Below, piece by piece: positions 367 to 10,588 of a stretch of 10,588 nucleotides of DNA. Below the pieces are notes generated by a model. It saw nothing but the letters and a program-made list of their open reading frames with translations. It had not been told where the DNA came from and did no database searches. The stretch covers positions 1 through 10,588 of the IMG/VR virus record IMGVR_UViG_2657244943_000008; one strand, given 5' to 3'. The position numbers and the translations under genes were made by a program. Source of the stretch: a virus. Its lineage: Duplodnaviria; Heunggongvirae; Uroviricota; Caudoviricetes. Position 1 is the stretch's first letter, and each line of letters starts with the position of its first letter.

Positions 367-478
367 GGATTACTCCGGATACCCGGGCAGGAAGCGCCCC
401 GTCGTCATACTCACCGGCCTGAATGACCTCAACACGCATACCGTCCGGTGACCATTTCAGATCTTGTTTCAGGATCAT
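332..478 (-). CDS. Small hypothetical ORF (48 aa) between the Rz-like gene and the tail-fibre-like gene
   Basis: ATG at 478-476 preceded by GGTGA; translation [49 protein letters not shown]; overlaps the start of the 1..366 gene by about 32 nt in another frame. No recognisable family. It could be real, or the frameshifted 5' part of the downstream gene. Confidence 0.2.
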
Positions 479-500
479 GATTCTTCACCCGTCAGAACAG

Positions 501-520
501 GGGGCGCGGTTCCGCGCCCC
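501..520 (-). terminator. Perfect GC-rich hairpin (GGGGCGCGG-TT-CCGCGCCCC) 7 nt downstream of the Rz-like stop codon
   Basis: 9-bp perfect inverted repeat seen directly in the sequence. On the minus strand it is followed by CTGTTCTGAC, which is only a weak U-tract, so intrinsic-terminator function is uncertain. It could also be a protein-binding palindrome. Confidence 0.35.
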
Positions 521-527
521 TGAGTGA

Positions 528-878
528 TTACGCCGCTGCAATCTTCAGCAGTTTGATGGCCTGCGAATCGACCAGCATCCCGCCGGTGCGCTTGGTGGTA
601 TAAAAACCGACAAACGGTTTATTGGTGTACGGGTCACGCAGAATGCGGGTGCCGATACGGTCAACGATGGTGTAACCCCGTTTGAAGTTACCAAATGCAA
701 TGGCTTTCGCATCAGCGGCGATATCCGGCATCTGTTCGTTTTCAGCGATACCGTAACCCGCCAGAGAGGACGGCTGCCCCAGCTCCAGCCCCGGACGCCA
801 CAGATAGTTAACCGCCCATGACAGACAGACGATGATGCAGATAACCAGAGCGGAGATAATCGCGGTTAATCTGTTCAT
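528..878 (-). CDS. Rz-like inner-membrane protein (i-spanin-like N-terminal anchor with a divergent C-terminal domain)
   Basis: The ATG at 878 overlaps the TGA of the endolysin gene (ATGA), which is the lambda R/Rz arrangement. The first ~24 aa (MNRLTAIISALVICIIVCLSWAVN) closely match the lambda Rz N-terminal TM anchor as I recall it. The remaining ~90 aa (…GYGIAENEQMPDIAADAKAIAFGNFKRGYTIVDRIGTRILRDPYTNKPFVGFYTTKRTGGMLVDSQ…) do not resemble the Rz coiled-coil domain. Confidence 0.6.
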   Translation of the reverse strand: MNRLTAIISALVICIIVCLSWAVNYLWRPGLELGQPSSLAGYGIAENEQMPDIAADAKAIAFGNFKRGYTIVDRIGTRILRDPYTNKPFVGFYTTKRTGGMLVDSQAIKLLKIAAA

Positions 879-1351
879 ACCTCAATCTCTCTGACCATTC
901 CGCCCGCTTCTTTGAATTTTGCAATCAGGCTGTCAGCCTTATGCTCGAACTGACCATAACCAGCGCCCGGCAGTGAAGCCCAGATATTGCTGCAACGGTC
1001 GATAGCCTGACGAATATCACCGCGATCAATCATCGGTAAAGCGCCACGCTCTTTAATCTGTTGCAGTGCCACAGCGTCCTGGCTTTTCGGAGAGAAGTCT
1101 TTCAGGCCAAGCTGCTTGCGGTAAGCATCCCACCAGCGTGAAAGAAGTTGATAACGGCCTGCAGCTGTTGATTTGAGTTTCGGGTTTAGCGTGACAAGTT
1201 TGCGAGGGTGATCGGAGTAATCAGTGAAGAGTTCTCCACCGACAATAACGTCATAACCGTGGTTACGTGTCGGTTGTCGCCCGTTATCCGTTCCCTCTGA
1301 CCATGCCACCATATCCAGGAAAGCTTTACGCTGGGAATTTAGTACCTGCAT
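875..1351 (-). CDS. R: Endolysin, lambda R-type lytic transglycosylase (158 aa)
   Basis: Translation MQVLNSQRKAFLDMVAWSEGTDNGRQPTRNHGYDVIVGGELFTDYSDHP…REIEV is nearly identical over its full length to lambda gpR as I recall it (same 158-aa length, catalytic Glu in the WSEGT motif). A strong AAGGAG RBS lies 6 nt upstream of the ATG, inside the end of the holin gene. Confidence 0.92.
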   Translation of the reverse strand: MQVLNSQRKAFLDMVAWSEGTDNGRQPTRNHGYDVIVGGELFTDYSDHPRKLVTLNPKLKSTAAGRYQLLSRWWDAYRKQLGLKDFSPKSQDAVALQQIKERGALPMIDRGDIRQAIDRCSNIWASLPGAGYGQFEHKADSLIAKFKEAGGMVREIEV

Positions 1352-1354
1352 AAA

Positions 1355-1681
1355 TTACTCCTTAGAGCCACCAAACTTGTTACCGATTACTCTCATTGCA
1401 GCCCCACGAATAGCATCAACACCGATCAGCCCCACCCCACCACCAATGGCAACAGATAGTGATTTAGGCCATCCGACATACTCAAGAGCGGATGCAAAAG
1501 TCAGCGTCAGAGCGCCACAGAGTAGAATTTCGAGTGTTTTTCGCTTCCAGCCGCCACCACCGCCAAAATAGGCAATACGTAAACCAGCCATAACAATCGA
1601 CATAATCACTGCGCCCAGCGGTGTGTCTCCACGCCACCAGCTCTGGACCAACTCCAGCCATGTATTTGGGTTATGAGGCAT
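1355..1681 (-). CDS. S: Holin, class I with three predicted TM segments (108 aa)
   Basis: Sits immediately upstream of the endolysin on the same strand. Three hydrophobic stretches (GAVIMSIVMAGLRIAYF, LEILLCGALTLTFASALEYV, LSVAIGGGVGLIGVDAI) and a charged C-terminus, the same architecture as lambda S. GAGGTGAGAG lies upstream of the ATG at 1681. Sequence similarity to lambda S is modest. Confidence 0.75.
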   Translation of the reverse strand: MPHNPNTWLELVQSWWRGDTPLGAVIMSIVMAGLRIAYFGGGGGWKRKTLEILLCGALTLTFASALEYVGWPKSLSVAIGGGVGLIGVDAIRGAAMRVIGNKFGGSKE

Positions 1682-1822
1682 TTGTAGTTATCTCTCACCT
1701 CGCTGATACAGCAGGTGCAAATTGAGGAAACATCATGTACCGCAAATCAGAAGCGGAAACGTCAAAGAAGCCGAGTCAATGGATAACTGCGGGATAGGCT
1801 AGGACCAAGGAATCCCCAGACC

Positions 1823-1855
1823 CAGAAACGACAAAACCCGCTCGATGGCGGGTTT
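1823..1855 (-). terminator. Intrinsic-terminator-like hairpin oriented on the minus strand (possible tR'-like late-operon terminator)
   Basis: Plus strand shows AAACCCG-ctcgatgg-CGGGTTT at 1834-1855. On the minus strand the stem is followed by TTTTGTCGTTTCT. It lies ~150 bp upstream of the holin start, at the boundary between ~50% GC phage DNA and the AT-rich cassette. Confidence 0.45.
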
Positions 1856-1900
1856 AAGCTGTGTGGCGAAGTAAGCACACTTAACAGATTACGATATTTT

Positions 1901-1929
1901 TTGCGTACGCGTTAGTGTTTTGATAGAAT
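1901..1929 (+). promoter_or_regulatory. Sigma70-like promoter for the two-gene cassette (TTGCGT, 17 bp spacer, TG-n-TAGAAT extended -10)
   Basis: -35 TTGCGT at 1901-1906, 17-bp spacer, TG at 1921-1922, -10 TAGAAT at 1924-1929. This would give a ~37-nt leader to the ATG at 1973, which has GGGA 6 nt upstream. Motif match only, no experimental support. Confidence 0.45.
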
Positions 1930-1972
1930 TTTCAGCCACATAAAAATTCATTCTTATAATTCGGGATATATA

Positions 1973-3148
1973 ATGGATATAACTTGTTTAGAATGTGGCA
2001 ATGTTCTTGACGACCCAACTGTAGCTTGCGATAAATGCGGTGCCACGCCTCATGTTGTAGTGCTGGGCAAACAATCGTACTTTCCTATTGGTGCTGTAAC
2101 AGCAAATCTTGAAAAAAATGATTCAAGAGCATTTGATTATCGATTAGGTGAAGTTTGGGATCTAAAAAATGAAGTCACATCTGAATTCATAACCAGAATT
2201 GAGAAAAAATTTAGCCGAAAAAACAAATTTCATAACTTCCTAGACTCAGATCACAACCCTTCATCCATTCCTACGATCCTAAAAAAATACATTAATAAAA
2301 ATAATGAATTCATTGATTTATCTAGAGCTATAATAGAGAAGCTTAAACATAATGCTAATAACGAATCGAGAGTTGCCCAACTTCAGGGGGGGAGCGTTGT
2401 TTTCATCCACTATAAGTCTACCGAACCAGAGGATTTGGGGAAACTTCTAATCGTAATGGTTGATAAACAAAGCGCCTATGACTTTGATTCGGATAAGTTG
2501 ACCCCAACAAGATTAAATCCAATTAATACCGATGCCTTACGGCAGGCTGCGATGTTCGATTTAACTTTATTCGAAGCCAGTTATCCAGAAAACAAGGGTG
2601 ACTCATATGTACATTTCTTGCAAGGTAAATCTAAAAGCGATTTTTTCAAAGACTCATTAGGTTGCCGACATGATTCGGACAATAAAAGAAGCATTCAGCA
2701 ATTATTCAGTGCTATAGATATTTTTGCTAGTAAAAACTCACTCGGTCGTGTACTGCGTGATACTATTGACAATGAAGTTAAATCCTTACTGGAAAAAAAA
2801 TCAAAAGATAAACACGGAAATAAGTCCGTTAAGATAGAGGATATTTCAAAAATAATTGACTCATGCCTGACTGATTCACACAAATGTAAGGGAACGTTTG
2901 TCGATTTTGTTAATCTTAATGGTTTCCAGATTGACCCTCAATTTGAACCAACTCCTAAAGCAGCTGAAAGCGCGCTTACAATTGAAGTGGCAGATAACGA
3001 CAATAATTTTAAGTTGAAAATAATGCGTGGAGCTATTGGAGACGAAAAGTCAAATAAGCCTGTAATTCTCACTGACAACAAATGCGAAATTGTGATAAAA
3101 TTGAGTCAGGCAAATTATGATGAACTCAAAAGATATAGAGACAGCTAA
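1973..3148 (+). CDS. Zinc-ribbon plus NdpA/YejK-like nucleoid-associated-domain protein (391 aa); cassette gene 1
   Basis: N-terminal CxxC…CxxC (CLECGN…CDKCG). The central and C-terminal region aligns by eye to E. coli YejK/NdpA as I recall it: GGSVVFIHYKS…LLIVMVDKQ versus GGIVLFCHYRY…LLVAVLNN, and YVHFLQGKSKSDFFKDSLG versus [22 protein letters not shown]. About 30% GC against ~50% in flanking phage genes. Confidence 0.6.
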   Translation: MDITCLECGNVLDDPTVACDKCGATPHVVVLGKQSYFPIGAVTANLEKNDSRAFDYRLGEVWDLKNEVTSEFITRIEKKFSRKNKFHNFLDSDHNPSSIPTILKKYINKNNEFIDLSRAIIEKLKHNANNESRVAQLQGGSVVFIHYKSTEPEDLGKLLIVMVDKQSAYDFDSDKLTPTRLNPINTDALRQAAMFDLTLFEASYPENKGDSYVHFLQGKSKSDFFKDSLGCRHDSDNKRSIQQLFSAIDIFASKNSLGRVLRDTIDNEVKSLLEKKSKDKHGNKSVKIEDISKIIDSCLTDSHKCKGTFVDFVNLNGFQIDPQFEPTPKAAESALTIEVADNDNNFKLKIMRGAIGDEKSNKPVILTDNKCEIVIKLSQANYDELKRYRDS

Positions 3149-3150
3149 TA

Positions 3151-4365
3151 ATGACAATTGCTGATGACTTATCAAGATTAGCGCAGATTATTAACGGAGC
3201 CTCAAGCAGAGTTGAGGGCTACTACACTGTCATAACTCTTGAAGAAAGCATTGTTATTGTAAATAGTTCTGAAATAATTAGACTGTTACAATCTATAGGT
3301 TATAAAAAGGCAACAACCTGCATCGAAAATAATGAAATTTGGCTAGATCGCCAAGCTTCATCTTGGGATGATGCTATAATTTATGAGAATGTTGAGTCTT
3401 TTTGGTCTAGAGTAAACACCCAAAACGCTCTTCCGAAAAATTATATCATCGGAACGCCGTTAATACTCCCTACTTCTAAGAATGAAAGCATCGAAAAAAT
3501 CCATATTTTCTTTATGTGGAAAGATATCCTTTCATTAATTTCTGATCATCATAACAGTGACTGCTCTGTCTTATTTTTCACCAATGAAGACAAAAGTTAT
3601 ACAGTCGAACTCACGCATTTTTTACAATATAGCGAGATTAATCGCTTATCGAACTCGTCTCTTAAATATGAAATTATAAAGGAGCTTCTCGACACAATAA
3701 AAATCAATGATTTACACAAAAGCGAGCGCAAGCTCGTTATACGCTCAGCCATAAACGAAGTATTTAAAGCAAATGGTACGTTCAATTTCTTTGACTTGCT
3801 TAACTCTACTGAACTCGTCAGGAAAAAATATGATGAACTATATGAGATTTACACAAAGAGGTTTTCTGTAAATAAAATTCTTAACGAACTCGATGAGAAA
3901 AATCTTGAGTTCACGAGTAAAATTAACGAATTCATATCATCTAATCAGACAAAAGCATTGACTATTCCCGGTGCATTAATAGCAGCTGGTGGCTTAGTGA
4001 AGGCTAATGAAACAACCGAAGCAATATTGATTATCGCAGGACTTTGGATGATAAAAAAAGTCAATTACATTTCTATTGAGATATTCAATGAAACATTCGA
4101 CAACTTACGTTCTCGAGTGGAGTCCGCTTTCGATAAGTATTTAAAGTTTGAAGAAAATAAAGAAATCAAAGATAATGCAGATAGTATTAAGAGTAGCATT
4201 ACAGGTTTGATTGATAAAGCTAAAAAAAGGATGAGAACTGTTAAATATCTCGCATCAGCCATGTTTTATGGAGGCCTTATTTACGTTGGATATAAACAGT
4301 TCCCAGTCTTTTTTGAAAAATCGGCAGTAAATCTATTTTATTTTTTATGCCATACTATAAGCTAA
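3151..4365 (+). CDS. Hypothetical protein with C-terminal hydrophobic (membrane-anchoring) segments (404 aa); cassette gene 2
   Basis: ATG at 3151 is 2 nt after the gene-1 TAA (TAATAATG), indicating translational coupling. The N-terminal ~260 aa are soluble with no motif I recognise. The C-terminal part has hydrophobic stretches ALTIPGALIAAGGLV, AILIIAGLWMI and VKYLASAMFYGGLIYVGY. Its 3' end overlaps the Q gene convergently by 21 nt. AT-rich. Confidence 0.6.
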   Translation: MTIADDLSRLAQIINGASSRVEGYYTVITLEESIVIVNSSEIIRLLQSIGYKKATTCIENNEIWLDRQASSWDDAIIYENVESFWSRVNTQNALPKNYIIGTPLILPTSKNESIEKIHIFFMWKDILSLISDHHNSDCSVLFFTNEDKSYTVELTHFLQYSEINRLSNSSLKYEIIKELLDTIKINDLHKSERKLVIRSAINEVFKANGTFNFFDLLNSTELVRKKYDELYEIYTKRFSVNKILNELDEKNLEFTSKINEFISSNQTKALTIPGALIAAGGLVKANETTEAILIIAGLWMIKKVNYISIEIFNETFDNLRSRVESAFDKYLKFEENKEIKDNADSIKSSITGLIDKAKKRMRTVKYLASAMFYGGLIYVGYKQFPVFFEKSAVNLFYFLCHTIS

Positions 4366-4701
4366 CATTGCTAAACAGCCATCAACAAACCCCATTGCAG
4401 TTTGCAGTTCCTTCCTAATTGTGCCATCAGAGCATTTTCTCTTCTTCGCAATAGTGCGTAATGAGATACCGATAACAAAGTGGGCGATGATGAGCTCATA
4501 TTCATCTGGTTTATACCTTCTCAACCGAGCCACACAACTGTCTATCATGATGCCTTCGTCATCATCACACTGAATCCGTGACTTTTTGCCATGAGGTAAA
4601 AGTCCCTTGAAACCAGCCGCTATCGGCTGCCAGTCCACTCCGCTATTGTCTGAAGCAGCCCAAGCTCCCCAACGATCCATTACTTCATACATATCACGCA
4701 T
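4345..4701 (-). CDS. Q: Late-gene antiterminator Q, short QuuD-like family (118 aa from the ATG at 4701)
   Basis: Translation [35 protein letters not shown]…CDDD… resembles DLP12 QuuD as I recall it ([35 protein letters not shown]…CDDD…). The track ORF begins at a TTG at 4716; the ATG at 4701 with GGAGAAAG upstream is the more likely start. Confidence 0.8.
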   Translation of the reverse strand: [118 protein letters not shown]

Positions 4702-4887
4702 CAACTTTCTCCACAAAATCAGGCCAGCACACCAATTGCCAGCGCACGATCGATAAGACCAGGGACAATTACTGACTCTTGCCGGTGAGCCTGACGGAAA
4801 ACTCCGCGCAGCAGGTCATTAATATCGTTCTTAATTAACTGATTATTTATCTCATCACTGAATATCTTTATATAGTGAGGACTTATT

Positions 4888-5712
4888 ATGTCTCAGAACT
4901 TAGACGCAACCGCAATTAATCAAATCCATGCCCTTATTTCTGCTCAGGGTGTTAATGAAATTATCAGTAAGATTGGTGCCGACGCAGTGGCATTACCTGA
5001 AAATTTCCGCATTCATGATCTGGAAAAATTTAATTTAAATCGCTTCCGTTTCCGTGGCGCGCTTTCCACTGCCTGCATCGATGACTTTATCCGTTATTCT
5101 AAAGATCTTGCAGATGAAGGCACCCGCTGCTTTATCGATGCCGATAATATGCGTGCCGTCAGTGTTCTTAACCTGGGTACTATTGATGAACCAGGTCACG
5201 CAGATAATACCGCCACTCTCAAACTGAAAAAGACAGCACCGTTCTCTGCACTGTTGTCTGTTAACGGCGAGCGTAACTCCCAGAAGTCACTGGCAGAATG
5301 GATTGAAGACTGGGCCGACTACCTTGTGGGCTTTGATGCTAATGGTGACGCCATTCAGGCAACAAAAGCGGCTGCGGCAGTCCGTAAAATCACAATTGAA
5401 GCGAACCAGACTGCTGATTTTGAAGACAATGACTTCAGCGGCAAACGCTCCCTGATGGAGTCTGTCGAAGCGAAGACCAAAGACATTATGCCAGTGGCAT
5501 TTGAATTTAAATGCGTTCCGTTTGAAGGTCTGAAAGAACGTTCTTTTAAATTACGCCTCAGCATTATCACTGGCGATCGTCCTGTACTTGTTCTGCGCAT
5601 TATTCAGCTGGAGGCTGTGCAGGAAGAAATGGCTAACGAATTTCGCGATCTGCTTGTTGAGAAATTCAAAGACAGCAAAGTAGAAACCTTTATTGGTACT
5701 TTCACCGCCTGA
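4888..5712 (+). CDS. yfdQ: DUF2303-family prophage protein, YfdQ-like (274 aa)
   Basis: Length and N-terminus ([14 protein letters not shown]…) match my recollection of E. coli CPS-53 YfdQ. It is followed by a YfdR-like HD-domain gene, as in CPS-53. GAGG RBS 8 nt upstream. Function unknown. Confidence 0.6.
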
Positions 5713-5840: not shown

Positions 5841-6377
5841 ATGTCATTTATTAAAACTTTTTCTGGGAAGCATTTTTATTATGACAGGATAAATAAAGAC
5901 GACATCGTTATTAACGATATCGCGGTTTCCCTTTCAAATATCTGTCGCTTTGCAGGACATCTTTCACACTTCTACAGCGTCGCCCAACATGCGGTGCTTT
6001 GCAGCCAGTTGGTGCCGCAGGAATTTGCTTTTGAAGCGTTAATGCATGATGCAACAGAAGCATATTGCCAGGATATCCCCGCACCACTGAAACAACTTCT
6101 TCCTGACTATAAACGGATGGAAGAAAAAATAGACGCCGTAATCCGTGAGAAATACGGGTTACCTCCTGTTATGAGCACGCCTGTGAAATATGCCGATCTC
6201 ATTATGTTGGCAACCGAGCGTCGCGATCTCGGGCTTGATGATGGCTCTTTCTGGCCTGTGCTGGAAGGTATCCCGGCAACAGATATGTTCAAAGTTATTC
6301 CACTGGCACCGGGCCATGCCTACGGGATGTTTTTGGCACGCTTTAAAGAGTTACATACGATACATAAACAATCCTGA
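5841..6377 (+). CDS. yfdR: HD-domain phosphohydrolase, YfdR-like 5'-deoxynucleotidase (178 aa from the ATG at 5841)
   Basis: H…HD motif (HLSHFYSVAQHAVL…ALMHDATEAY) typical of the HD superfamily. The ATG at 5841 has GGAG 8 nt upstream and gives 178 aa, matching the YfdR length I recall. The track ORF starts earlier at 5778 without an RBS. Confidence 0.7.
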   Translation: MSFIKTFSGKHFYYDRINKDDIVINDIAVSLSNICRFAGHLSHFYSVAQHAVLCSQLVPQEFAFEALMHDATEAYCQDIPAPLKQLLPDYKRMEEKIDAVIREKYGLPPVMSTPVKYADLIMLATERRDLGLDDGSFWPVLEGIPATDMFKVIPLAPGHAYGMFLARFKELHTIHKQS

Positions 6378-6432
6378 CAGTGAAATTAACCAGTGAAATA
6401 GTTTTGTAGCAAAAGAAATGAGGTTATCAAAA

Positions 6433-6678
6433 ATGCTTCAAATGCTGACACTTGAAGAATGGGCTTCTGAAAAATACAGAAGTAATCCTCCAAGTGTGTC
6501 CACATTGCGTCGTTATGCTAAGCAGAATTTATTTTGTCCACCGGCCATGAAACAAGGCCGGTTATGGCGAGTGCGTGAGGACGCCGAGTTAGTTGGAGAG
6601 CTGGTAACACCAGTAATTAAGAAAAATGACTCATTACTTTTGCAACGGATTTTGAGTGATGGCAGCCAGACCGCGTAA
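6433..6678 (+). CDS. xis: Excisionase, lambda Xis-like (81 aa from the ATG at 6433)
   Basis: MLQMLTLEEWASEKYRSNPPSVSTLRRYAKQNLFCPPAMKQGRLWRV parallels lambda Xis (…LTLQEW…RSLETVRRW…FPPPVKDGREY…). GAGG lies 9 nt upstream of the ATG at 6433; the alternative start at 6418 has no RBS. Overlaps the int start by 20 nt as in lambda. Confidence 0.75.
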   Translation: MLQMLTLEEWASEKYRSNPPSVSTLRRYAKQNLFCPPAMKQGRLWRVREDAELVGELVTPVIKKNDSLLLQRILSDGSQTA

Positions 6679-7786
6679 AAATAATGTTTCGGTCCCTAAC
6701 TTATATCCGCTTTATAGTAGGAAAGTAAATAAAGTCTATTGGCGGTATAAGCATCCAGTAACAGGGAAATTTCATGCGCTAGGAACGAACGAAACCGAAG
6801 CCATCGCTATTGCCACTGAAGCCAATACGCGACTGGCTGAACAAAGAACTCGGCAGATTCTGGCCATCAGTGACAGGATAGCAACCAGCAAAGGGAAAGC
6901 AATCACAACGTCAACCTGGTTAGATCGCTACCAAGCGATCCAGGATGACCGACTGAAAAGTGGTGATATAAGACTCAACACTTATAAGCAGAAAGCCAAA
7001 CCAGTATCCTTACTTAGGGAACGAGTAGGAATGAAGTTGATCTCAGCCGTTGATGTCAGAGATATAGCACAATTGCTTGACGAGTATATCGCTGCCGGGC
7101 AGCCGAGAATGGCGCAAGTCGTAAGGTCTGTATTGATCGATGTATTTAAGGAAGCACAGCATTATGGCGAAGTTCCGCCAGGGTATAACCCTGCTCTTGC
7201 GACGAAGCAACCCAGACGGAAAATCACCCGTCAACGCCTCAGCCTCGAAGAATGGAAAAAAATCTTCGATATCGCAGATGCCAGTCATCGTTACATGGGA
7301 AATGCCATGCTCCTAGCATTGGTCACTGGACAGCGTTTGGGGGACATATCTAAAATGAAATTCAGCGATATTTGGGATGACCATCTACATGTCGAACAGG
7401 AAAAGACTGGAAGCAAAATCGCAATTCCTCTTTCTCTTCGCCTCAATACGATTAACTGGAGTTTACGCGATATAATAGCCCGCTGCCGTGACTATGCAGT
7501 CAGTCCATACCTAGTGCATTTTTTCCGTTCAACTTCACAAGCAGAACGTGGGGCACAGGTTAAATCCAATACATTGACGATGAACTTTAGCAAAGCGCGA
7601 GACTTGGCCGGAATTGATTGGGGTGATGGAACTCCAGCAACTTTCCATGAACAAAGATCTTTATCTGAGCGCCTTTATAGGGAACAAGGGATTGATACGC
7701 AAAAACTACTCGGACATAAATCTCCTAATCAGACAGCTAGATATCATGATGATCGTGGAAAAGATTGGGTAACTCTAGCAATTTGA
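6659..7786 (+). CDS. int: Tyrosine integrase, lambda Int family (375 aa from the ATG at 6659)
   Basis: Full-length similarity to lambda Int as I recall it, including the catalytic signature: R in LALVTGQRLGD, H-x-x-R in FHEQRSLSERLY, and H plus Y in LLGHKSPNQTARYHDDRG. The track start at 6656 is a GTG; the adjacent ATG at 6659 is more likely. Confidence 0.92.
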   Translation: MAARPRKNNVSVPNLYPLYSRKVNKVYWRYKHPVTGKFHALGTNETEAIAIATEANTRLAEQRTRQILAISDRIATSKGKAITTSTWLDRYQAIQDDRLKSGDIRLNTYKQKAKPVSLLRERVGMKLISAVDVRDIAQLLDEYIAAGQPRMAQVVRSVLIDVFKEAQHYGEVPPGYNPALATKQPRRKITRQRLSLEEWKKIFDIADASHRYMGNAMLLALVTGQRLGDISKMKFSDIWDDHLHVEQEKTGSKIAIPLSLRLNTINWSLRDIIARCRDYAVSPYLVHFFRSTSQAERGAQVKSNTLTMNFSKARDLAGIDWGDGTPATFHEQRSLSERLYREQGIDTQKLLGHKSPNQTARYHDDRGKDWVTLAI

Positions 7787-7920: not shown

Positions 7921-8886
7921 TCATTTCTTAAATTTAAGAATTTCTTTTAAGGCTTCTACTATATTTTTATCCCCATCCATGCTAATTTTCTCCTTCTCAA
8001 GAGAAACCGTAGTCTGCCCTTTTTCAAGAACAAAATTACGTTCTGTAGCCATGAGATTTTTAATAACCTCACCCATTAAGTCTTCGTTTCTAATGCCCTT
8101 AAGAAACTTTATCGCCAAAACTTTGGAATCGATATTGGTAAGCTCATTTTGAAAATACTTGACCTCATCAAAACCATTTTTGTACAACTTCAAGAAGAAA
8201 TAAGCAAATAGTTCAACGACAATTACAAATGATAATTTGGGGGCCATGTGAAGTATATATTCAAGCTTATCATTTGTGTTAATAGCATTTGTAACTGAAT
8301 ATCCAAGGTAAAGTATCCCACCAAAAGCAATAAATGCACCTAAAACCAGATTAACCCCACCACGTCTATTTAATCTATTTATTTCATTTTCTAAACGATA
8401 TACAATATCATTATAGTGTTTACTAATTTCTATTTGATTTCTAAACGAATTTATATCATTTTTCAAACTTAAATCTGCAGCCAAGAGAGTATTGCCTACA
8501 ATCTTTTTTTTAGCATTATCGATCAACTCTTGCCTTTCTTTTGATGTGAGTAAAACACCATTTAAATCTTTCGAATCATTTGTAACTAGTTGATTAAACT
8601 CTTGCTTTAAGGAGTCTAATTCTGACTTTAACTCTTCATATGAGTTAACATTCTTGTTTTTACTTTCACCTATTCCTTTATTAACATAATTTAATAAAAA
8701 TGCTGCCATAAAAGTTAAAATCAGAGTTGCAATAAAGAAACTATTTTCATCTTGAAGTATTTTAGCAACAGTGGAAAAATAACTTACGAGAAGAGGCTGA
8801 GCATTATAAAGCCCCATTCCTAACAAAACTGCAATTGCCGTACCTAAAACGAACCTTACTTCTTGTCTTTTTAGTAACCTATTCAT
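7921..8886 (-). CDS. Four-TM membrane protein with central coiled-coil and C-terminal soluble region (321 aa); candidate membrane effector
   Basis: Hydrophobic segments VRFVLGTAIAVLLGMGLY, FFIATLILTFMAAFLLNYV, VNLVLGAFIAFGGILYLGY and LSFVIVVELFAYFFLKLY. The linker between TM2 and TM3 (ELKSELDSLKQEFNQL…RLENEINRLNRR) is heptad-like. About 28% GC. Weak GGTG RBS. No confident family assignment. Confidence 0.6.
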   Translation of the reverse strand: MNRLLKRQEVRFVLGTAIAVLLGMGLYNAQPLLVSYFSTVAKILQDENSFFIATLILTFMAAFLLNYVNKGIGESKNKNVNSYEELKSELDSLKQEFNQLVTNDSKDLNGVLLTSKERQELIDNAKKKIVGNTLLAADLSLKNDINSFRNQIEISKHYNDIVYRLENEINRLNRRGGVNLVLGAFIAFGGILYLGYSVTNAINTNDKLEYILHMAPKLSFVIVVELFAYFFLKLYKNGFDEVKYFQNELTNIDSKVLAIKFLKGIRNEDLMGEVIKNLMATERNFVLEKGQTTVSLEKEKISMDGDKNIVEALKEILKFKK

Positions 8887-8970
8887 TATGACACCATATG
8901 TTATTATTTAACGTTTTATTAAATTCAAAATACTGCCCGAGATTTTAATACTCATAACAAAATAAGAATT

Positions 8971-9000
8971 AATATACAAAATTTTTCATACTACAAGCAA
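8971..9000 (-). promoter_or_regulatory. Candidate sigma70 promoter for the 4-TM gene (minus strand: TTGCTT, 18 bp spacer, TATATT)
   Basis: Minus-strand -35 TTGCTT (plus 8995-9000) and -10 TATATT (plus 8971-8976) with an 18-bp spacer, about 85 nt upstream of the ATG at 8886. AT-rich context, so motif matches are weak evidence. Confidence 0.3.
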
Positions 9001-9004
9001 GGCT

Positions 9005-9090
9005 TTGATAAATTGTTTTGATAACGATTTGATAACCGTTAGAAATCTAATAATAAAAACGGGAGCCATCAGACTTCCGTTTTTGATAAC
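9005..9090. repeat. Four direct copies of TTGATAA(C) upstream of the 4-TM gene promoter
   Basis: TTGATAA at 9005-9011, TTGATAAC at 9018-9025, 9029-9036 and 9083-9090; the middle pair is spaced 11 bp (one helical turn). One copy on the minus strand reads tATCAAatcgTTA, matching the IHF WATCAANNNNTTR consensus. Possible operator or architectural sites. Confidence 0.4.
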
Positions 9091-9448
9091 CCGGAGCCTA
9101 GATTTGGCTACCCCAGCAGGAAGATGCAACGTCCACGATTGTCACAAATCAGGCTGGCTCGAGGCAGAATGGCGACTGTGAGGGAGAAACGAAAGTTCAC
9201 ACTCGTTCTCACTGCTGATGGGGGGTTCACTAACAATCTCAAGCACTAATTAATGGACGAAACTCTACACAAAGCCCCATTTTGTAGGAAAACTGGTAAC
9301 GGATTAGTAATACTACCCGGCCAGAACATGACCGACCGGGTAAAAAAATATCCTGACGCTACTAAGCCTTTAAGATTTGACTAACCTAGTGCTTACATTA
9401 TAGAGAACTGCTTATGCCTTCTAAATTATAGAGTAAAAATACTCACCA

Positions 9449-10588
9449 CTAAAATACAACTTGCTTCCTTAGTAAATCACCTCTAGCATTTGAGTAATAT
9501 TCAGTCGAATTGCCAGTAACTTCCCGGAGTACTTCTGTTACAAGGTTATTTAGTATTCCCGTAAGTTTAAGAAACTCTCCATATGAATTAGGTTTCTCAA
9601 ATATCTTTCTGGTACCGTTCGGCACATCGAGCTGCATTGCAGCATCATGATCCTGGGCTAAGTGATTTAGCCAGCGGTGAGTCTCAACAAGTACAGCAAG
9701 TTCATAGTATGTACTATGACGGAGATTATTAGCATCTGCATGGTACATTAGTGAAGCAATATCATAGCTGCTTAGATCAATACTCGAACCTTCGTCTCCA
9801 CTGTCTGCTTTCAGGGTTTTGAGCATGCGAATTGATTTTCTTAATCCACCATTGCATTGATCGCATTTGTCTTTGATACGTTGCATGTGGAGGAACGGTT
9901 CATTGTAGATACGCTCTCGTTTGTTTTTATCAATTATGGTAACTCCACGATGTTCTTCTTTTTTTGTGAGTTGGTACTCTTTCGTATCCCACCATATGCC
10001 TGGCACTACATCAACTTCTCTTTGAAGACTCCCCCCCGTTATTCTCAAGGACTTGGCGTTATTATCGTCAACCTGAGCAGCAGGAAATGTCATTTTTAGA
10101 GCATCTCGAGCTGCACGCCTAAGTTCAATGATGACGTCTCGGCCATCTTTCTCAGCTGCACTATAGCTGCCAACTCCACCGCTATCATACATAAGCATCT
10201 GAGTATCAATAATTAAAAGATCTACATCACTGAAACCTTTGATATGGATATCTAGGGGAACAGAACCTTGTACCCGAAAATCTAGGTTTAGGTCTAATTT
10301 CTTAGTCAGCTGATTTTCAATACGATACGCGGTTTCGAATGAGATCTCTGTATAGCGGGGGTCAACTGGTTGCATCGCACCAATGACATACCGGATAGCT
10401 GAATCGTCTCTTCCTCTAGACTCCCAACTTTCATTAAGCTCAAGAGCATCTTCAAGCAATGCATATTTTTCAAGGCCATCATATCTTTGATTACTCATTG
10501 ATTCTGTGGCTACTCGCAACTGATCATATGTCCCTTTACGACGTGACTTCATGCGTTCAATACGCGAACTATATGATGAATTAGACAT
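9449..10588 (-). CDS. Pol-beta-superfamily nucleotidyltransferase with cGAS/DncV-like (CD-NTase/SMODS-like) active-site motifs (at least 379 aa; start at the window edge)
   Basis: GS…D-x-D motif (RVQGSVPLDIHIKGFSDVDLLII) and a downstream third acidic motif REVDVVPG, resembling the [DE]hDhhP of OAS/cGAS/DncV-type enzymes. About 42-48% GC. The ATG coincides with the last base of the window, so the true N-terminus may lie further upstream. Confidence 0.55.
   Translation of the reverse strand: MSNSSYSSRIERMKSRRKGTYDQLRVATESMSNQRYDGLEKYALLEDALELNESWESRGRDDSAIRYVIGAMQPVDPRYTEISFETAYRIENQLTKKLDLNLDFRVQGSVPLDIHIKGFSDVDLLIIDTQMLMYDSGGVGSYSAAEKDGRDVIIELRRAARDALKMTFPAAQVDDNNAKSLRITGGSLQREVDVVPGIWWDTKEYQLTKKEEHRGVTIIDKNKRERIYNEPFLHMQRIKDKCDQCNGGLRKSIRMLKTLKADSGDEGSSIDLSSYDIASLMYHADANNLRHSTYYELAVLVETHRWLNHLAQDHDAAMQLDVPNGTRKIFEKPNSYGEFLKLTGILNNLVTEVLREVTGNSTEYYSNARGDLLRKQVVF

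Follow-up and report, generated by a model that had tools for sequence, protein, structure and literature searches.

A probable relic of the e14/phage 21 attachment-site arm beside a CBASS cassette in a prophage inserted in icd

Background

Between the gene for a 321-aa protein and that for a CD-NTase (CBASS cyclase), the window, that is, the whole stretch of 10,588 nt analysed here, carries repeated TTGATAA heptamers followed by DNA richer in G and C than its surroundings. The initial annotation, made from the letters alone, had treated nt 9005–9360 as a structured intergenic region and had offered for it a regulator-binding array, an ncRNA, an island junction or att remnant, or a decayed gene. 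The region is indeed intergenic, but the true intergenic span is nt 8887–9448, a spacer of 562 bp. The question raised by this locus is what the repeats and the GC-rich segment are, and how they came to lie between the two genes.

The prophage and the genes flanking the spacer

The window carried a xisE-intE pair, intE being the name given by the annotation in three complete E. coli genomes; the arm-type DNA-binding domain PF09003 spanned residues 2–74, at the N-terminus of IntE. The spacer was identical in 3 of the 5,426 complete E. coli genomes, where the gene order was intE, the gene for the 321-aa protein, spacer, CD-NTase, Cap15, and icd, and 10 more assemblies had the identical gene order with 0–2 base differences in the spacer. 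The xisE-intE pair and this gene order therefore identify the window as the int end of a lambdoid prophage of the e14/phage 21 type that is integrated in icd. The next genes past the CD-NTase, just outside the window, are Cap15 and then icd; the window reaches no further than the cyclase start codon, as the matching IMG/VR contig ends there, and the prophage boundary chosen for it splits a CBASS operon in two. Coordinates of the features are given in Table 1.

The nucleotidyltransferase neighbour named in the initial annotation proved to be the CD-NTase. The 321-aa protein gave no match in Pfam, PADLOC, or NCBIfam; its homologues elsewhere are found at prophage ends, adjoining int or att remnants. 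Cargo of the int-to-icd interval was lit, ymfE, and ymfD in K-12, genes for a DUF262 protein and a hypothetical protein in JNEC-KY176, and genes for an AAA ATPase and an HNH endonuclease in E. coli strain PAR.

Table 1 Features of the integrase end of the prophage and of the spacer between the 321-aa protein gene and the CD-NTase gene
Position (nt)	Strand	Feature	Basis or remark
6418–6678		xisE	
6656–7786	+	intE, lambda-type tyrosine integrase	Pfam PF09003 Arm-DNA-bind_1, E 2.7e-37; PF00589, E 5.7e-19
7921–8886	-	gene for 321-aa protein, cargo between int and the fossil P' arm	"membrane gene" is a label of the initial annotation only
9001–9040	+	three phased TTTTGATAA(C) repeats (heptamers at 9005, 9018, and 9029) and CCGTT; fossil P' arm	conservation in 46 loci
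9055–9084	.	weakened hairpin with A-run, stem, and U-run; putative fossil of the bidirectional int/icd terminator	folding, alignment
9083–9089	+	fourth TTGATAA, not conserved	other modules read TTTAACCC or ACAACCC there
9085–9104	+	end of module homology, AACCCGGAGCCTAGATT	alignment with 46 canonical modules
9105–9295	.	orphan GC-rich DNA (48% GC), in place of the phage-borne icd 3' end	no match
9124–9249	+	41-codon ORF, unsupported as a gene	AGGA just 2–3 nt before ATG; no family match, no homologues
9296–9445	-	3' flank of the Cap15/CD-NTase (type I CBASS) cassette	alignment to locus L253
9315–9341	-	strong hairpin in the cassette flank; sense strand has U7 before and no U-run after	-19.6 kcal/mol, z -4.2
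9397–9425	-	promoter-like TTTAGA-17-TATAAT, probably fortuitous	single match in 8700–9600 versus 2.7 expected from shuffles
9449–10588	-	CD-NTase (CBASS cyclase)	PADLOC cyclase PDLC00772, E 6e-137

Repeats, base composition and hairpins

The four TTGATAA copies reported in the initial annotation were all present on the + strand, at nt 9005–9011, 9018–9024, 9029–9035, and 9083–9089, with start-to-start distances of 13, 11, and 54 nt; copies 2 to 4 read TTGATAAC and copy 1 reads TTGATAAA. On both strands of the whole window the heptamer occurred 10 times versus 3.05 ± 1.72 expected (200 dinucleotide shuffles, none of which reached 10), and 4 of these 10 copies lay within 85 nt. The GC-rich segment was likewise found as described, with 48.5% GC in nt 9091–9360 against 22–32% in the flanks, the GC fraction being 0.22 in nt 8887–9000, 0.32 in nt 9001–9090, 0.485 in nt 9091–9360, 0.32 in nt 9361–9448, and 0.31 in the gene for the 321-aa protein. 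The hairpin that had been quoted from this segment, GAGAAACG at nt 9184–9191 pairing with CGTTCTC at nt 9204–9210, exists as 7 bp with a one-base bulge; it is a minor one, the strong hairpins being those at nt 9055–9084 and 9315–9341.

A module conserved between int and icd

A distant blastn search with nt 8887–9100 returned 504 E. coli records, which matched nt 9001–9081 only, and the K-12 match was located directly after the icd stop codon, within e14. The genome holding the window sequence possessed a second copy, adjoining icd (nt 14,626–14,700 of that locus, L001). A scan of one genome per species with the pattern TTGATAAN{4,6}TTGATAACCGTT gave 105 matches, and 46 enterobacterial loci ranging from Escherichia to Proteus, Providencia, Xenorhabdus, Serratia, and Erwinia were aligned; one further match, in Kluyvera (L150), reaches a contig edge about 100 nt past the module, where the far side is unreadable. 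In all 46 aligned loci CCGTT and a hairpin came after the array, with the icd stop codon about 25 nt further on, and the repeats were phased at 11 nt. Repeat cores, CCGTT, and the stem were conserved per column in at least 80–95% of these loci, whereas spacers and loop varied. In at least 15 loci, an IntE homologue (55–87% identity; full or 3'-terminal) stops 25–40 nt before the first repeat. A 15-nt repeat pattern was not specific enough for a search of IMG/VR. An int relic precedes the module in S. arizonae.

Judged by its sequence and position, the module in these 46 loci is the P' arm of the phage 21/e14 attachment site together with the terminator that int and icd have in common. On the attR side, native E. 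coli DNA past the displaced icd fragment has the terminator without the repeats, and host and phage are homologous over 204 nt, between the core ...CATATGGCGCAGCAT and the terminator, which places the repeats immediately beyond this homology, on the phage side. For the P arm, the three e14 variants of CFSAN061772, ARS-C101, and K-12 each have the same 12-mer, GTTTTGATAACC, at attR, 118 nt away from the core. An attP of about 396 bp (128 + 204 + 64) could be reconstructed, which presumably fits the minimal attP of phage 21; the latter is reportedly 366–418 bp, with 209 bp of icd homology and with repeated dodecamers that are said to have been proposed as arm sites.

Repeats that are clustered, proximal to int, and outside the homology, a further copy on the P arm, and an Int with PF09003 are all as known for arm-type sites. 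Given this position, their conservation, the analogy with lambda, and the arm sites reportedly proposed for phage 21, the repeats are probably arm-type Int sites, to which the N-terminal domain of Int would bind. Because the tandem TTATCAA repeats at 11-nt spacing also match the IHF consensus WATCAANNNNTTR, as read directly from the sequence, IHF could be an alternative binder. The regulator-binding array of the initial annotation can thus be kept only as probable Int sites, since nothing was found showing regulation of the gene for the 321-aa protein; similarly, its set of four repeats is reduced to the first three, which belong to the conserved module, the copy at nt 9083 being outside it.

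The copy in the window as a fossil

The copy in the window shared 71% to 76% identity with the functional copies of the same genome and of K-12. Within its genome it starts about 5.6 kb from the start of the working copy, which adjoins icd about 2.5 kb past the window end. Its hairpin, with A5 and U5 runs and one mismatch or wobble per strand, had predicted energies of -12.8 (+) and -13.2 (-) kcal/mol versus -17 and -19.4 kcal/mol for the Klebsiella module; the stem carried two substitutions, the 3' arm reading GACTTCC versus the canonical GGCTCCC, and a consensus terminator scanner made no call. The module homology breaks off exactly at the expected icd stop codon (TTACAT), past nt 9104 no similarity to icd was detected by blastn (word size 7) or by tblastn with Icd, and the core CCATATGGCGCAGCAT was absent from the whole window at up to 3 mismatches, so that no core lies at the proper distance from the arm as in a functional attL. 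With the core missing and no icd-like DNA after the hairpin, the window copy is therefore a fossil and not an att site; it is unable to recombine because the icd/core part has been lost. All three heptamers are intact despite the decayed hairpin, which could mean that they have retained a function.

Among the readings of the initial annotation, an island junction or att remnant was thus right, the repeats and hairpin being the P' arm and terminator of an e14/phage-21 attL, present as an orphan copy. Knowledge of the phage 21/e14 att module dates from the late 1980s and the 1990s, and tandem prophage arrays are well known to contain att fossils; the fossil in the window is a fresh instance of something already known. 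For the spacer as a whole, we regard as likely a composition of fossil P' arm and terminator (nt 9001–9104), orphan filler (nt 9105–9295), and cassette tail (nt 9296–9445).

Composition of the GC-rich segment

The GC-rich island did not hold as a single unit, since the 150 nt on the cyclase side are part of the CBASS cassette. When nt 9296–9445 were compared with the flank of L253, whose cyclase is 77% identical, the local score was 49 against 24–28 ± 3 for the null (z 6.4–7.7). Cassettes with a 68% to 80% identical cyclase were found in a Yersinia P2-like prophage, a Citrobacter phage region, the Serratia chromosome, a Pantoea conjugative region, and several metagenomic or unassigned contigs; a first scan of genome contigs with the cyclase protein gave no relative. 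A conserved third CBASS component after the cyclase was considered and rejected, the post-cyclase DNA being unrelated in the Yersinia, Citrobacter, Serratia, and Pantoea cassettes and in loci L254 and L255, while L253 shares the first 150 nt only. In L253 the counterpart of the hairpin at nt 9315–9341 keeps the 7-nt loop and differs by one G-C to A-U double change, a single one-sided change, and a bulge. The hairpin is without the U-run of a canonical terminator because the U-run of the sense strand precedes it. The -35/-10 spacing of the promoter-like site at nt 9397–9425 was not kept in L253.

The remaining part, nt 9105–9295, had no such relative. Near and distant searches of the 5,426 E. 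coli genomes retrieved only the 3 genomes with the same element; there was no match in phages or plasmids, nor among about 260 fetched loci, and no Pfam or PHROG match. In IMG/VR, three island patterns matched only the two source contigs, and two such patterns gave no match in JGI metagenomes. Several origins were tried and rejected. Derivation of the island from icd was dropped, because neither blastn (word size 7) nor tblastn with Icd gave any match and the DNA is unlike the decayed icd/int relic of strain 268.2 (see below). A possible target-site duplication (nt 9100–9116 and 9373–9389, 14 of 17 positions identical) was discarded, as chance alone would give about 0.6 such pairs in 650 nt and several comparable pairs exist. 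Weak local matches of nt 9105–9295 to L253 (- strand), Pantoea, and L026 (z 3–4.3) were judged to be due to chance. For a tRNA/tmRNA att target or a known RNA family, Rfam (gathering threshold and E ≤ 10) and ARAGORN gave only a partial STnc150 match.

Alternative explanations

That partial match, to Rfam STnc150 (RF01402), was obtained in the permissive scan at nt 8936–9091 (+) with 40.7 bits and an E value of 4e-7, and raises the alternative that the repeats and hairpin are a working + strand STnc150-like sRNA gene, transcribed away from the gene for the 321-aa protein and ending at nt 9055–9084. The same model also matches the modules of S. enterica arizonae (60.7 bits) and Klebsiella (40.8 bits), and in Salmonella STnc150 is expressed, with species of about 90 and 150 nt, between icdA and STM1239 (PMC2515195; PMC10964419). 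However, the score in the window falls short of the gathering threshold (60 bits), about 110 of the 267 model positions are missing, a search of nt 8700–9600 for sigma-70-like promoters returned none on the + strand, and, because this stretch is the 3' untranslated end of int in canonical loci, the match is better taken as shared att DNA than as a dedicated gene; an sRNA gene here is unlikely. The repeats might also serve as operators of a regulator, or as IHF sites, controlling the promoter of the gene for the 321-aa protein, given that they lie 119–150 nt upstream of its start codon (about 200 nt for the fourth, non-conserved copy), on the promoter side of the terminator, and that the tandem arrangement creates the IHF-consensus matches. 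We hold this to be quite unlikely, in that the array occurs between int and icd in 46 other loci without such a gene, and homologues of the 321-aa gene have unrelated upstream regions; accordingly, a conserved upstream region of this gene was rejected, the homologues in UTI89, ARS-C101, and IMG/VR all having unrelated upstream DNA.

For the GC-rich DNA, the initial annotation had named as the only coding candidate a 44-codon ORF at nt 9124–9258. The ATG-initiated + strand ORF is real, but it ends at nt 9249 and has 41 codons plus the stop; that it encodes a small basic peptide, or that this part is a decayed protein gene, is scarcely credible in spite of a GC content like that of coding DNA. 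The spacing of the Shine-Dalgarno sequence is unusable, 8 stop-free stretches gave no Pfam or PHROG match at E ≤ 1, a tblastn comparison with 23,898 ORF fragments from all fetched loci left nothing significant after multiple-test correction, there is no similarity to icd, and none of 10 assemblies has a gene called there. The peptide and decayed-gene readings were accordingly abandoned, nt 9105–9295 being without family match or homologue. An ncRNA, the other reading proposed for this part, was considered on the strand of the cyclase: nt 9105–9445 (-) might yield a functional transcript of its own, of about 340 nt from the site at nt 9425–9397, or a regulatory 3' UTR of the CBASS mRNA ending at the fossil terminator. 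The promoter-like site, the stable hairpin at nt 9315–9341, and the terminator-like hairpin at the end are in its favour, as are a flank partly conserved with one other cassette, including one compensatory pair, and stretches of at least 465 nt without called genes past the cyclase in 6 of 7 other cassette contexts. Set against these, no Rfam match was found in nt 9091–9448 even at E ≤ 10 (the scan suggested in the initial annotation gave nothing at the gathering threshold and, at E ≤ 10, only the partial STnc150 match outside the GC-rich part), and the whole segment folds no better than its shuffles (z -1.8 on the - strand, where 4 of 100 shuffles were as good, and -0.5 on the + strand). Moreover, the promoter spacing is not conserved, six other cassettes have post-cyclase regions without sequence similarity, and nt 9105–9295 are found nowhere else; for a structured RNA there is a single partial homologue (L253, nt 9296–9445) with a single compensatory pair, and none for nt 9105–9295. 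This reading is very unlikely. Highly improbable is the specific form in which the roughly 350 nt from the CD-NTase stop to the fossil terminator act as a functional RNA attached to CBASS; as a long 3' UTR, or as a processed sRNA, this RNA would be organized around the conserved hairpin at nt 9315–9341 and would tune cyclase expression or be a ligand of the CD-NTase. If that were true, the stretches without genes (at least 465 nt) that follow related cyclases would be its fast-evolving counterparts. The STnc150-like sRNA, the minus-strand ncRNA or 3' UTR, and the operator array could each coexist with the fossil reading preferred here.

Comparison with known systems

The layout of an e14/phage 21 att site, as we would reconstruct it, runs from the int stop codon through three phased repeats (P' arm) and a bidirectional hairpin terminator to a copy of about 200 bp of the icd 3' end that reaches the crossover core. 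In lambda, the arm-type sites P'1-P'3 of the P' arm are bound by the N-terminal domain of Int. The two arms are alike in having three adjacent sites of about 10 bp in the same orientation, spaced about one helical turn apart and proximal to int, with more copies on the other arm, and lambda Int carries the PF09003 arm-binding domain as does IntE. They differ in motif, TTTTGATAAC in the e14 type versus C/AAGTCACTAT in lambda, and in that about 200 bp of icd homology and the terminator intervene between the arm, with its putative sites, and the core in the e14 type.

With the attP/attL of phage 21/e14 at icd the window shares the integrase family, the target gene, and the module. In K-12 e14 the module reads TTTTGATAAC-N-TTTTGATAAA-N-TTTTGATAACCGTTAG, then the terminator, directly after icd, with the P-arm copy 118 nt from the core, whereas the copy in the window is internal, without icd or core, about 24% to 29% diverged, and weakened in its hairpin. 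Brody & Hill 1988, Hill et al. 1989, and Wang et al. 1997 are given as references 55–57 on phage 21/e14 at icd in PMC12803456. According to the same paper, the e14 sRNA C0293/co293 is non-coding and located in the K-12 cargo region between icd and the first e14 gene (PMC12803456). It showed no sequence similarity to any part of nt 8887–9448 and lies on the other side of the repeats from the region studied here. Another candidate from that paper, svsR (PMC12803456), was set aside as unrelated, being located in cI. STnc150 shares model positions 177–263, which are the int/icd module, with the window, and the Salmonella gene lies directly after icdA (PMC2515195); the window differs in its lower score, in the missing middle of the model, and in that no promoter-like site was found on the + strand.

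Strain 268.2 and the proposed history of the spacer

A similar arrangement was observed in E. coli strain 268.2 (NZ_CP059947.1, L263), where an internal module has 85% identity with the window copy across its last repeat and hairpin, and in both copies the 3' arm of the stem reads GACT instead of GGCT, a G-to-A change. This fossil is followed by a decayed icd fragment (aa 339–416, 44% identity) and an int fragment (aa 282–370, 70% identity), after which come a cargo gene, the working module, and icd. Thus, in both genomes a fossil lies inside the cargo region from int to icd, with a second, working module adjoining icd; that of strain 268.2 has a single repeat and has kept the icd and int fragments, whereas the window has three repeats and, instead of the fragments, orphan DNA and a CBASS cassette. 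The arrangement in strain 268.2 points to tandem integration followed by deletion.

From these comparisons, the most likely history of the window is of the same kind. Two icd-targeting elements would have integrated in tandem, and a deletion would have taken out most of the icd-proximal one, leaving its cargo, the cassette of Cap15 and CD-NTase, joined to the old junction. The GC-rich island would be the DNA at that joint, made up of the cassette 3' flank and the orphan part. The icd fragment that the tandem-integration model predicts at nt 9105–9295 was not detected by blastn or by tblastn with Icd, with the relic of strain 268.2 included in the comparison. As for its present role, the CBASS transcript would run from nt 9445 to nt 9105 and end at the weakened fossil terminator, which would separate it from the gene for the 321-aa protein; most plausibly, the island would serve only as the untranslated tail of this transcript, and the fossil arm sites would simply lie upstream of the gene at nt 7921–8886.

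Implications

In annotation, the repeats should be labelled as a P'-arm relic of the e14/phage-21 type and not as a candidate regulator array or ncRNA. As the 3' part of the STnc150 model is the same att arm and terminator, an origin of this sRNA from a prophage attachment-site remnant is suggested. More generally, the interval from int to att in icd-targeting prophages may act as a "cargo bay" that gains defence genes through tandem integration and deletion, with att fossils marking the joints.

Defence genes and mosaic structure of the prophage

The type I CBASS cassette consisted of two genes overlapping by 8 nt, with that for the Cap15 effector preceding that for the CD-NTase (the cyclase; window 9449–10588), and this operon was split at the start codon of the cyclase by the boundary of the window and of the IMG/VR provirus. 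Two neighbouring genes of the prophage matched the NCBIfam equivalogs DS1_1 and DS1_2; judged by these matches, the pair is predicted to be a second defence system of the same prophage, besides CBASS. The GC content was 50–57% over nt 1–1900 of the window versus 27–48% elsewhere in it, and this step, together with the minus-strand lysis genes carried by the GC-richer segment, marks the prophage as a mosaic.

Features of the window and of the comparison loci
Feature	Location	Strand	Remarks
Holin	window 1355–1681	-	PF05106; among lysis genes
DS1_1, nucleoid-associated anti-phage protein	within window 1973–4365	+	451 bits
DS1_2, anti-phage protein	within window 1973–4365	+	375 bits
Hairpin preceded by a U-run	window 9315–9341	-	cassette 3′ flank
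Counterpart of hairpin	L253 2836–2862
Cap15 effector	L001 (locus holding the window) 13695–14321		past window end
tRNA 3′-end fragment	L009 5740–5790
tRNA 3′-end fragment	L026 4975–5025
Cap15-to-intE block	L016 (GCA_019493805.1) 444–4973
Module matching STnc150	L219 (S. enterica arizonae) 6149–6233
Module matching STnc150	L208 (Klebsiella) 4782–4854
Cargo: lit/ymfE/ymfD	K-12
Cargo: DUF262 and hypothetical gene	another E. coli locus
Cargo: AAA ATPase and HNH endonuclease	another E. coli locus
Cargo: hypotheticals and int fragment	another E. coli locus

Surroundings of the CBASS cassette

Post-cyclase regions were examined in L020–L025, L253, L254 and L258, plus L255. A stretch of 465–1260 nt without a convincing gene lay 3′ of the cyclase in six of the seven other Cap15/CD-NTase contexts, and these gene-free stretches of related cassettes were unrelated in sequence; the exception was L255, in which a 175-aa gene was found 84 nt past the cyclase. 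The 3′ flank of the cassette contained a hairpin kept in two cassettes, those of the window and L253, with one compensatory base-pair change; it lacked the downstream U-run typical of a canonical terminator.

Homologues of the 321-aa gene were present in L009 (about 52% amino-acid identity) and L026 (about 69% nucleotide identity across 443 nt), each with a tRNA 3′-end fragment just upstream. These fragments show that genes of this type occur repeatedly at the very attachment sites of prophages, with differing integrases. The block comprising Cap15, cyclase, spacer, 321-aa gene and intE was also found in L016, where it followed a sit/Znu-type ABC transporter operon and a predicted gene of 50 aa that occupies the position of the icd 3′ end and may correspond to it. 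Since these stand in place of full-length icd and rluE, a rearrangement or a different flank is suggested.

The intE-to-icd interval and STnc150

Between intE and the P′ arm, the E. coli loci L003, L261, L262 and L263 differed in their content, and this variable cargo bay looks like a defence-gene hotspot. Positions 177–263 of the Rfam model of the Salmonella sRNA STnc150 corresponded to the P′ arm plus terminator found in integrase modules that target icd, and a relic of int (aa 332–374) was located directly upstream of the S. arizonae module. This correspondence and the relic suggest that Salmonella STnc150 was domesticated from the att remnant of a prophage or from an int 3′ UTR.
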